Shown: in pieces, positions 5,928 through 6,597 of the stretch
How the letters are laid out: every line of letters starts with the position of its first letter
Position numbering within the stretch: the stretch's first letter is position 1
Translations under genes and position numbers: made by a program
Source: Candidatus Giovannonibacteria bacterium
Lineage (GTDB): Bacteria; Patescibacteriota; Minisyncoccia; UBA11713; 2-01-FULL-45-33
Direction: 5' to 3'
DNA: 64,000 nucleotides
Assembly (NCBI GenBank): GCA_016432405.1
Contig: CP066687.1
Coordinates: forward strand, 42,456 to 106,455
The notes under the pieces: generated by a model
What the model was told of the DNA's origin: nothing
The model's database searches: none
Seen by the model: the letters and a program-made list of their open reading frames with translations, nothing else

Positions 5928-5965
5928 ACTAAGACCAAAGGACCTAAAAGATCACAGTGTCTTAG
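5928..5965 (-). promoter_or_regulatory. Hairpin immediately 3' of the VR
   Basis: An 8-bp inverted repeat, ACTAAGAC ... GTCTTAGT, with a 22-nt loop. The right arm covers the stop codon. It sits where DGR target-recognition hairpins are found. Confidence 0.4.
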
Positions 5966-6597
5966 TTTTGAGGGCTAACTTGCGAAACGGCAAACGCGAA
6001 CCCACTGTCACGAGGCCACCTAACGCCAGGCCTGTCGTAGTACGCGAGCAACCAGCGACCATCAGCATCGCGGTCCGCGTACAGCAAGTCCGGAAGGCCA
6101 TCGGAGTCATTGATGGGTTCGTGCATTGCGACGATCCACCAAAGGCCCATGGCTTTGATCTCCTCGTCCGTGAACTTCTCACGGATGAGGCAAGCCACTT
6201 CGGCGTTCGGCTTTTCAAGCTTGCGCTTGTCGGCCTCGGCGCGGATCTTCTTCGTGATCCGGTCGTTGTCCTCGAAGAGCATGCCATTGAGAACGGCGAC
6301 TTCAGTCGTTACGCCTTTGGTCGGCACGAAGCTCGGCGAACGGAGCACCTGCTTGGCGTAGTCACCCACGCGGAAGCCTTTGCTCTCAAGCCTGGTGACC
6401 CAATCCTCGCCAGTCGTGCCATCGCTGATGACCGAGAAGTAGATGACGCCGTCTTCCTTGCGCCACGAACGGGTCGGTTCGGAAACCGAGAGTTCGTCGC
6501 GGAGAAAACGGAGCGCCATGTCGTGGCCACCGAGTTTCTTGACGATGGCGTTGAGTTGGCCGGCGGTGAGGTCGGCGGATGCAAATTCTGTACTCAT
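5962..6597 (-). CDS. DGR variable (target) protein
   Basis: A 211-aa ORF starting MSTEFASADL, preceded by the RBS AAGGAGG. The C-terminal 42 codons form the VR: DRDADGRWLLAYYDRPGVRWPRDSGFAFAVSQVS. The gene is GC-rich (about 60-65%) against an AT-rich neighbourhood. Confidence 0.8.
   Translation of the reverse strand: MSTEFASADLTAGQLNAIVKKLGGHDMALRFLRDELSVSEPTRSWRKEDGVIYFSVISDGTTGEDWVTRLESKGFRVGDYAKQVLRSPSFVPTKGVTTEVAVLNGMLFEDNDRITKKIRAEADKRKLEKPNAEVACLIREKFTDEEIKAMGLWWIVAMHEPINDSDGLPDLLYADRDADGRWLLAYYDRPGVRWPRDSGFAFAVSQVSPQN
5980..6105 (-). repeat. DGR variable repeat (VR)
   Basis: Aligns to the TR with A-specific substitutions only. The 25 bp at the 3' end, TTGCGAAACGGCAAACGCGAACCCA on the + strand, are identical between TR and VR. 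This is an IMH-like segment. Confidence 0.85.

Follow-up and report, generated by a model that had tools for sequence, protein, structure and literature searches.

A repeat junction and an interrupted palindrome at the putative 3' target-site end of a diversity-generating retroelement from Candidatus Giovannonibacteria

Target sites of diversity-generating retroelements

Diversity-generating retroelements (DGRs) are very common in bacteria belonging to the candidate phyla radiation (CPR), and what is known of their mechanism comes from BPP-1 and a few other systems. This report concerns one such element in a 64,000-nt stretch of DNA from Candidatus Giovannonibacteria bacterium (contig CP066687.1), called the window below. 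It is a complete CPR-type DGR whose coding sense is the minus strand, and it consists of a target gene with its variable repeat (VR), a template repeat (TR), a reversed avd gene, and a gene for the reverse transcriptase (RT). Our subject is the short interval around the 3' end of the VR. An earlier reading of the window by itself, referred to here as the original prediction, had proposed that this interval holds an element for the initiation of mutagenic homing (IMH/IMH*) followed by a stem-loop of the kind required for efficient retrohoming. We describe the anatomy and conservation of the interval, the compensatory changes and strand symmetry of its palindrome, the frame independence of its junction motif, and the boundary of mutagenesis within it.

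The IMH/IMH* of BPP-1 is about 34 bp long ((GC)14 plus 21 bp), occupies the 3' end of VR and TR, and is richer in GC than its surroundings. It is situated past the last adenine to undergo mutagenesis and forms the 3' boundary of the A-to-N changes. Next to the VR is a stem-loop, with the stop codon in its stem, that is needed for efficient BPP-1 homing (PMC3240598). In the hairpin as published by Guo et al. 2011 (PMC3240598), the stem is GC-rich and 7-10 bp long, the loop is a GRNA of 4 nt, and the distance from the VR is 4-34 bp; function is lost when the loop is lengthened by 2 nt. Deleting the BPP-1 stem-loop lowers activity 22-fold in E. coli, and it has been proposed that the structure keeps the target single-stranded (bioRxiv 10.1101/2025.08.18.670894). 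Only 34% of DGRs have inverted repeats rich in GC (PMC5758913). As for gene order, Wu et al. 2018 class the arrangement target-TR-(avd)-RT as architecture B3 and attribute it to 90% of CPR DGRs (PMC5758913).

The features at issue here are the following, with coordinates counted along the window:

5980-6108, minus strand: VR, the last 43 codons of the variable region, repeat family D1
5514-5642, minus strand: TR, partner of the VR in repeat family D1
5980-6004 (VR copy), minus strand: 25-bp VR/TR-identical block, IMH-like, 56% GC (window 48%), adenine-free except for a terminal AA
5978-5984, minus strand: junction motif CGCAAGT, in which CGCAA closes the VR/TR homology and GT lies beyond it
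5928-5966, minus strand: VR-flank palindrome (hairpin 1), with an outer 8-bp stem (5959-5966/5928-5935) and an inner 5-bp stem (5949-5953/5941-5945)

How does this locus compare with the described systems? Its genes are ordered and oriented as in the CPR-type B3 cassette, with no architectural difference (Wu et al. 2018, PMC5758913). The block and the hairpin sit where BPP-1 has its IMH and its stem-loop, as the original prediction held, and both are conserved in the clade across target proteins. Like the BPP-1 IMH, the block stands at the 3' end of VR and TR, exceeds its surroundings in GC content, and lies past the last mutagenised adenine, at the 3' boundary of the A-to-N changes. It differs from IMH/IMH* in that VR and TR agree over all 25 bp, in that it lacks the all-G/C segment of about 14 bp, and in that VR and TR first differ at the base after CGCAA, the core being a motif of 7 nt that does not depend on the reading frame. 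That IMH and IMH* are identical in some DGRs is mentioned by Wu et al. 2018, who describe no motif like CGCAAGT (PMC5758913). The palindrome resembles the BPP-1/Legionella-type hairpin (PMC3240598) in starting 13 nt after the VR (described range, 4-34 bp), in having the stop codon in its stem, in keeping its structure as its sequence varies, in being strand-symmetric, and in having no counterpart in the TR flank. Unlike that hairpin, it has an AT-rich outer stem of 8 bp, internal loops, and an inner stem of 5 bp. In place of a GRNA loop, the outer loop has 23 nt and the inner loop is UUU; a GAAA loop occurs in the downstream terminator only. Block and hairpin are what one would expect of a DGR's cis-anatomy, although their form is unusual; they do not make a new kind of system.

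The end of the VR/TR homology

Two scans supplied the related loci. Scanning reference genomes with the target protein gave 73 loci, 26 of which have a TR about 470 nt downstream and are called sister DGRs below. Scanning metagenomes with the RT gave 80 loci, of which 33 have adenine-biased VR/TR pairs, most of them with unrelated target proteins. The comparison set comprises 59 related DGR loci, and junctions were counted in 53 non-redundant DGR loci.

The 25-bp sequence TTGCGAAACGGCAAACGCGAACCCA occurs exactly twice in the window, at 5514-5538 in the TR and at 5980-6004 in the VR, where chance would lead one to expect no such repeat. The two copies are the 3' ends, in the coding sense, of a 129-bp repeat, so the exact identity reported in the original prediction is borne out. 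Read in the coding sense, the block is TGGGTTCGCGTTTGCCGTTTCGCAA, and its only adenines are the final two bases (...CGCAA). The further claim that it contains no variable positions needs qualifying: the block is invariant, and it is not free of positions that could vary, given the two terminal adenines. In a single sequence this invariance is close to trivial, because just 2 of the 25 bases are adenine. The avoidance of adenine at synonymous sites was considered as evidence for an IMH and rejected, since codon position 3 is 1% A over the full length of the TRs.

Is there better evidence that exchange ends here? The last altered adenine is base 26 from the VR/TR end. Among the 26 sister DGRs, the terminal AA is altered in 0 of 52 cases, while TR adenines further upstream are altered in 381 of 680, and a change of CAA to CAG at the terminal AA would be synonymous. 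The likeness to an IMH claimed in the original prediction therefore holds for the position at the 3' end and for the boundary of mutagenesis; it does not extend to the (GC)14 run, no all-G/C run being present in the block, or to internal differences of the IMH/IMH* kind.

The bases on either side of the boundary add to this. The VR/TR homology ends in the same motif among the 53 loci, and 47 of them have CGCAAGT exactly. It is read as CGC-AAG-TAG (RK*) in 18 loci, as xCG-CAA-GTx (SQV..) in 27, which is the frame of the window's own family, and as xxC-GCA-AGT (AS..) in 9. Being read in all three frames, CGCAAGT must be conserved at the level of nucleotides rather than codons. CGCAA is followed by G in 52 of the 53 VRs and in 1 of the 53 TRs. 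Several TRs read CGAAA where the VR always reads CGCAA, which makes this a fixed difference and not the outcome of random mutagenesis. Target homologues without a nearby TR keep the motif in 26 of 40 cases. The junction thus appears to be better evidence than the block: it is frame-independent, the base that follows separates VR from TR, and its AA is unaltered in the sister DGRs. Together, the terminal-AA and junction results fit an IMH-like limit to exchange. Discrimination between donor and recipient would then lie just outside the shared block, a placement anticipated by Wu et al. for DGRs in which IMH and IMH* are identical.

In four loci (L020, L031, L058, and L041), about 15-40 nt are inserted precisely between ...TCG and CAAGT, at the point where the VR/TR homology stops, and some of the inserts are small palindromes. 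These could be footprints left by aberrant homing or by insertion events there.

The interrupted palindrome

Taken from the window sequence alone, the inverted repeat downstream of the VR is unremarkable and does not go beyond chance. Its arms, ACTAAGAC and GTCTTAGT, pair perfectly over 8 bp; the original prediction placed the left arm correctly at 5928-5935, and the right arm is at 5959-5966 rather than 5958-5965. The hairpin begins 13 nt past the end of the homology; as had been stated, it overlaps the stop codon, with the TAA (5964-5962) inside the 5' arm of the minus-strand transcript. The outer stem has 3 G-C pairs in a region of 38% GC, and what looks like a 23-nt outer "loop" contains the inner 5-bp stem, itself closed by UUU. 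There are 79 distinct perfect inverted repeats in the window with arms of at least 8 bp and loops of 3-30 nt. Folding had been proposed as a check, and the hairpin does appear in the minimum-free-energy structure (-13 to -14 kcal/mol as RNA, -4.9 kcal/mol as DNA); it is not exceptional by z-scores, which are -0.93 for 76 nt of RNA, -0.32 and +1.03 for the two DNA strands, and -2.28 for 53 nt of RNA.

It is the comparison with related loci that lifts the palindrome above chance. Pairs were counted on 36 aligned relatives for a two-tier structure, the outer tier being CTAAG/CTTAG (8 bp in the window) and the inner tier 5 bp. In this alignment 80% of cells are paired, and 90% in the inner stem; with slid partners the figure is at most 53%. 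In 27 cells both sides have changed, against 8.7 in shuffles, and the covariation score of 0.197 (0.122 in shuffles) was reached by 0 of 500 shuffles. Changes on both sides are found in 8 of the 13 pairs, and those of the inner stem are compensatory in 4 of 5. The 8-bp repeat of the original prediction is the outer stem of an interrupted palindrome that is conserved throughout the clade. In sister loci the inner loop is mostly UUCA. Distant relatives have palindromes of other sequence and like design, with stems of 4-8 bp separated by U-rich internal loops, and three-tier palindromes occur among the related loci.

The folding of whole flanks gives a similar picture. The mean fold z is -1.68 for 62 3' flanks of the target-protein family (below -2 in 45%) and -2.20 for 27 3' flanks of RT-anchored loci, mostly with other targets (52%), compared with -0.29 for 52 3' flanks of ordinary genes of the window (6%). 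The motif CTNRG occurs 3.3 times per 60-nt flank in 51 non-redundant VR flanks and 0.37 times per flank in the ordinary genes. Its 170 units in the 51 VR flanks represent a roughly four-fold excess over shuffles (41.5 ± 5.4), which is explained by the geometry of the hairpin, with its stems separated by U-rich internal loops. The VR flanks are also poor in adenine (18% vs 28%).

What lies at the corresponding place beside the TR? The palindrome is absent from the TR flank, and homologues without a nearby TR retain both junction and palindrome. The TR flank has an arrangement of its own:

5474-5513, minus strand: TR 3' flank, found by scan, made up of the 12-nt linker ATCTCTTCATTT, a hairpin (5501-5483), and the tract UUUUGUUUU

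The linker is conserved (TCTCTTCATTT). The hairpin, CTCTCCC-GTTTT-GGGAGAG, has a 7-bp stem and a 5-nt loop and starts 12 nt from the TR end; in the family the stem ranges from 7 to 10 bp and the loop from 5 to 13 nt. RNAalifold on the TR flanks of 26 loci gives -10.2 kcal/mol with 7 pairs, 4 of them compensatory. The original prediction had named an equivalent hairpin next to the TR as something that would argue against a target-specific role. A hairpin does stand there, at the same 12-nt distance, and it differs from the VR palindrome in sequence and shape, so it is not counted as its equivalent. Among 278 DGRs that have an Avd homologue, CPR members included, 207 have been described as having putative Avd-binding stem-loops just 3' of the TR (bioRxiv 10.1101/2023.10.23.563531), and the TR-flank hairpin resembles these in lying just downstream of the TR and in its co-varying sequence. 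It differs from the stem-loops of Handa et al. in that a U-tract follows, in that its loops of 5-13 nt are not tetraloops, and in that it overlaps the last avd codons and stop region on the opposite strand. The U-tract also makes it look like a terminator.

One locus (L023:4590-4700) has a full-length target homologue that runs straight into a TR-type flank and reversed avd, without the spacer. It looks as though VR and TR recombined and a deletion resulted; the DGR would then be dead.

DNA or RNA?

Immediately beyond the palindrome is a second structure that the original prediction had overlooked, the strong intrinsic terminator of the target gene:

5879-5924, minus strand: intrinsic terminator found by terminator scan, hairpin 5924-5889 followed by TTTTT

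The stem of this terminator is 16 bp long, includes four G-U pairs, and is closed by a GAAA loop; a U-tract follows. The 131-nt region that includes it and hairpin 1 has a fold z of -3.61. Might hairpin 1 be a terminator as well? No T-run follows 5928, so it does not qualify as an intrinsic terminator, and the idea was rejected on this ground together with the presence of a separate terminator downstream.

The two structures behave differently with respect to strand. In the related loci the palindrome folds about equally well from either strand (-16.0 vs -16.4 kcal/mol, p = 0.53), whereas the terminators, taken unfiltered, fold better in the sense strand (-19.5 kcal/mol) than in the antisense strand (-17.1 kcal/mol, p = 0.001). 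G-U and A-C combinations in the core pairs of the hairpin number 14 and 10, with no asymmetry. A palindrome that is symmetric between strands, next to terminators that are biased toward the sense strand, mildly favours a role in DNA, which is the level at which the BPP-1 stem-loop was shown to act (PMC3240598).

What the interval may do

We think it probable, though well short of secure, that an active CPR-type DGR of class B3 has its 3' target-site end in this interval. Every step of homing we infer by analogy with characterised systems. RT and Avd would reverse-transcribe the TR RNA with misincorporation opposite adenines, and the resulting cDNA would replace the VR. The right-hand (3') limit of exchange would fall in the adenine-poor, GC-rich shared block ending in CGCAA, the equivalent here of IMH/IMH*. 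Since this block is identical in donor and recipient, the two would have to be distinguished by what follows it. On the VR side, G-T would complete CGCAAGT, and some 13 nt on would come the strand-symmetric interrupted palindrome. On the TR side there would be a non-G base, the conserved linker, and a different hairpin belonging to the RNA machinery. The palindrome itself would most likely be an accessory element, acting in DNA, that boosts the efficiency of homing as the BPP-1 stem-loop does, and it would most likely hold the target single-stranded, which is the role proposed for that stem-loop. The target mRNA would be ended by the separate terminator past the palindrome.

Several points weigh against this account. 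The counts lack independence, since many of the compared loci are closely related, and the VR tail, its flank, and the TR cassette may be inherited together, in which case part of the conservation could be shared descent. The two-tier structure that was tested had been derived from the same 36 sequences, so that the slide control favours it, and RNAalifold on the 36 aligned VR flanks returned just 3 pairs (-0.58 kcal/mol). Neither of the features that define the BPP-1 hairpin, the GC-rich stem and the GRNA loop of 4 nt, is present; the original prediction's likening of the hairpin to the characterised DGR type stands as regards position, stop codon, covariation, and absence at the TR, and fails on stem and loop. 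As DNA, the copy of the hairpin in the window is weak and its z-scores are unremarkable, and an 8-bp AT-rich stem with a 23-nt loop would be poor at extruding a cruciform.

Could the palindrome instead be an RNA element at the 3' end of the target mRNA, concerned with stability, processing, or assistance to the terminator, with no part in retrohoming and simply inherited with the end of the VR gene? This is the main rival, and we regard it as unlikely without dismissing it. The palindrome is transcribed, lies directly upstream of a strong terminator, and folds better as RNA than as DNA, and the 34% of DGRs with GC-rich inverted repeats implies that such repeats are not generally required (PMC5758913). 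What speaks against the rival is that the palindrome has none of the sense-strand bias (G-U pairs) of the neighbouring terminators, that ordinary genes of the window have no comparable structure or CTNRG enrichment, and that it recurs after the VRs of unrelated target proteins in the same DGR clade. The CTNRG enrichment invites a different thought, that an array of CTTGG, CTTAG, and CTAAG units is a platform for binding a protein, which might be part of the DGR or come from the host, and that the inverted repeat is a by-product of units that are nearly palindromic. The excess over shuffles and over the control genes would suit such a platform, as would the adenine-poor flank and the tandem CTTAG of sister loci. 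We nevertheless give it little credence: the units are accounted for by the regular geometry of a hairpin whose stems are separated by U-rich internal loops on either arm, the inner stem shows compensatory changes and has no CTNRG motif, and the window's own flank has just two units.

Least probable by far, in our estimation, is that nothing functional is present, the 25-bp identity being no IMH and just the adenine-free codons of a conserved scaffold strand (G-F-A-F-A-V-S), and the 8-bp repeat a matter of chance. The window by itself would allow this, with so few adenines in the block, adenine avoided at codon position 3 throughout the TR, 79 comparable inverted repeats, and unremarkable single-sequence z-scores. 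The comparative data largely refute it: CGCAAGT is conserved in three frames and across unrelated VR sequences, the terminal AA is unaltered although CAA to CAG would be synonymous, and the hairpin recurs clade-wide with compensatory changes.

If the interval is indeed a target site, the clade appears to follow target-site rules other than those of BPP-1, relying on one junction base and an interrupted palindrome, which provides testable determinants of donor and recipient. A rule of this kind could be used to find remote targets in metagenomes and would aid the adaptation of small CPR DGRs as mutagenesis tools. A broader scheme is conceivable, although we would sooner doubt it than rely on it. 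In this scheme the clade would mark its targets with a two-part DNA signature, namely the frame-independent CGCAAGT (G in the VR, non-G in the TR) and the strand-symmetric multi-tier palindrome, in place of the (GC)14/IMH/GRNA-hairpin set of BPP-1. It would combine this signature with a TR noncoding RNA of about 390 nt that has a 220-nt leader, and with an Avd switched by a poly-C or (AC)n tract (both taken up below). Were the two-part signature true, remote targets would be predictable from sequence alone.

The rest of the cassette

The remaining genes of the element, and the promoter of the target gene, are as follows:

5962-6597, minus strand: DGR target gene, 211 aa, stop codon TAA at 5964-5962
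6714-6742, minus strand: sigma-70-type consensus promoter of the target gene, TTGACA-17-TATAAT, found by scan, 12 of 12 consensus positions
4110-5111, minus strand: DGR reverse transcriptase, 333 aa, RVT_1 (E = 7e-25)
5091-5507, plus strand: avd-like accessory gene, Pfam PF22296 (bAvd), E = 2.3e-10

What makes this a DGR? The two members of the 129-bp direct repeat are 87% identical, with 17 mismatches, and 16 of these fall at TR adenines in the coding sense (T on the plus strand in the 5514-5642 copy). It is because these are adenines of the left copy that the left copy is taken as the TR and the right copy as the VR. A search for additional VR copies in the window found none. The signature of DGR-type RTs is [I/L]GxxxSQ, and the RT of the window, for which more than 8000 relatives were found, has the motif LPLGNLTSQ. 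The Avd match reaches 41.3 bits where the cut-off is 40. An adenine-biased TR/VR pair, a DGR-type RT, a hypervariable coding VR, and an Avd are therefore all present, and adenine-biased VR/TR differences recur in the 26 sister loci and the 33 RT-anchored loci.

The product of the target gene is identical to Candidatus Giovannonibacteria protein HYW15_00365 and 1754 homologues of it were found. In an alignment of 27 target homologues the variable columns lie only in VR codons, and one of them (P0002) departs from the window protein only there; variation restricted in this way indicates that the element diversifies in nature. The DGR context assumed in the original prediction is thus confirmed by the RVT_1 RT with its GNLTSQ, the bAvd match, the adenine-specific differences, and the confinement of variation to the VR. 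Pfam returned no family for the target protein, a sequence search of solved structures returned nothing below E = 0.9, and an AlphaFold2 model built from 27 sequences has a mean predicted local distance difference test (pLDDT) score of 60.8, with the VR domain (158-211) below 50.

The avd open reading frame, on the plus strand with its start codon at 5091, and that of the RT, on the minus strand with its start codon at 5111, are arranged head to head and share 21 nt (5091-5111). Between the TR hairpin and the RT gene no promoter was detected on the minus strand, so the RT may rely on read-through of the terminator-like TR hairpin.

A proposed template RNA and the avd tract

Upstream of the TR are two features that point to a separate template transcript:

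5872-5880, minus strand: extended -10 element TGTTAAAAT, proposed for the TR RNA, with TGnTATAAT-like elements at the same position in related loci
5643-5864, minus strand: structured leader of about 220 nt that abuts the TR 5' end, identified with RNAalifold

We propose the -10 element as the promoter of the TR RNA. The leader folds in RNAalifold at -69 kcal/mol with 63 pairs, of which 34 have compensatory changes. It was found with nhmmer in 57 of the 80 RT-anchored loci and ends at the TR 5' edge wherever a TR was called. A search of Rfam at E values up to 1 over 4000-6800 gave a chance match to mir-27 as its sole result and left the leader unmatched. Leader, TR-flank hairpin, and U-tract together suggest a stand-alone TR RNA of about 390 nt. 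Neither this leader nor the junction motif, the flank palindrome, or the poly-C tract described next was found to have a description in the papers searched.

The tract in question is a C10 run at 5130-5139 (plus strand) inside avd, which on the other strand is a G10 run 19-28 nt upstream of the RT start codon. It separates a short leader peptide (MSQLSFHKNFSTT) from the body of Avd. At the same position, 45 of 59 related loci have either 6-14 G/C bases in a row or a (GT)n repeat ((GT)10-13). The leader peptide shares the reading frame of the Avd body in 7 loci, and in 10 it does not. Three close relatives (L004, L007, and L067) differ solely in the length of the tract (10, 8, and 9), a comparison to be read with the caution that homopolymer lengths in metagenome assemblies are error-prone. 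This pattern suggests phase-variable switching of Avd by way of the tract.

Finally, five loci (L010, for example at L010:4655-4675, as well as L041, L050, L054, and L064) contain short palindromic inserts, TCCGCCAG..GGCGGA and GCCTGCCGGCAGGC, at various positions in flank or leader. These recurrent inserts may represent a miniature element, either mobile or a repeat, of CPR genomes.

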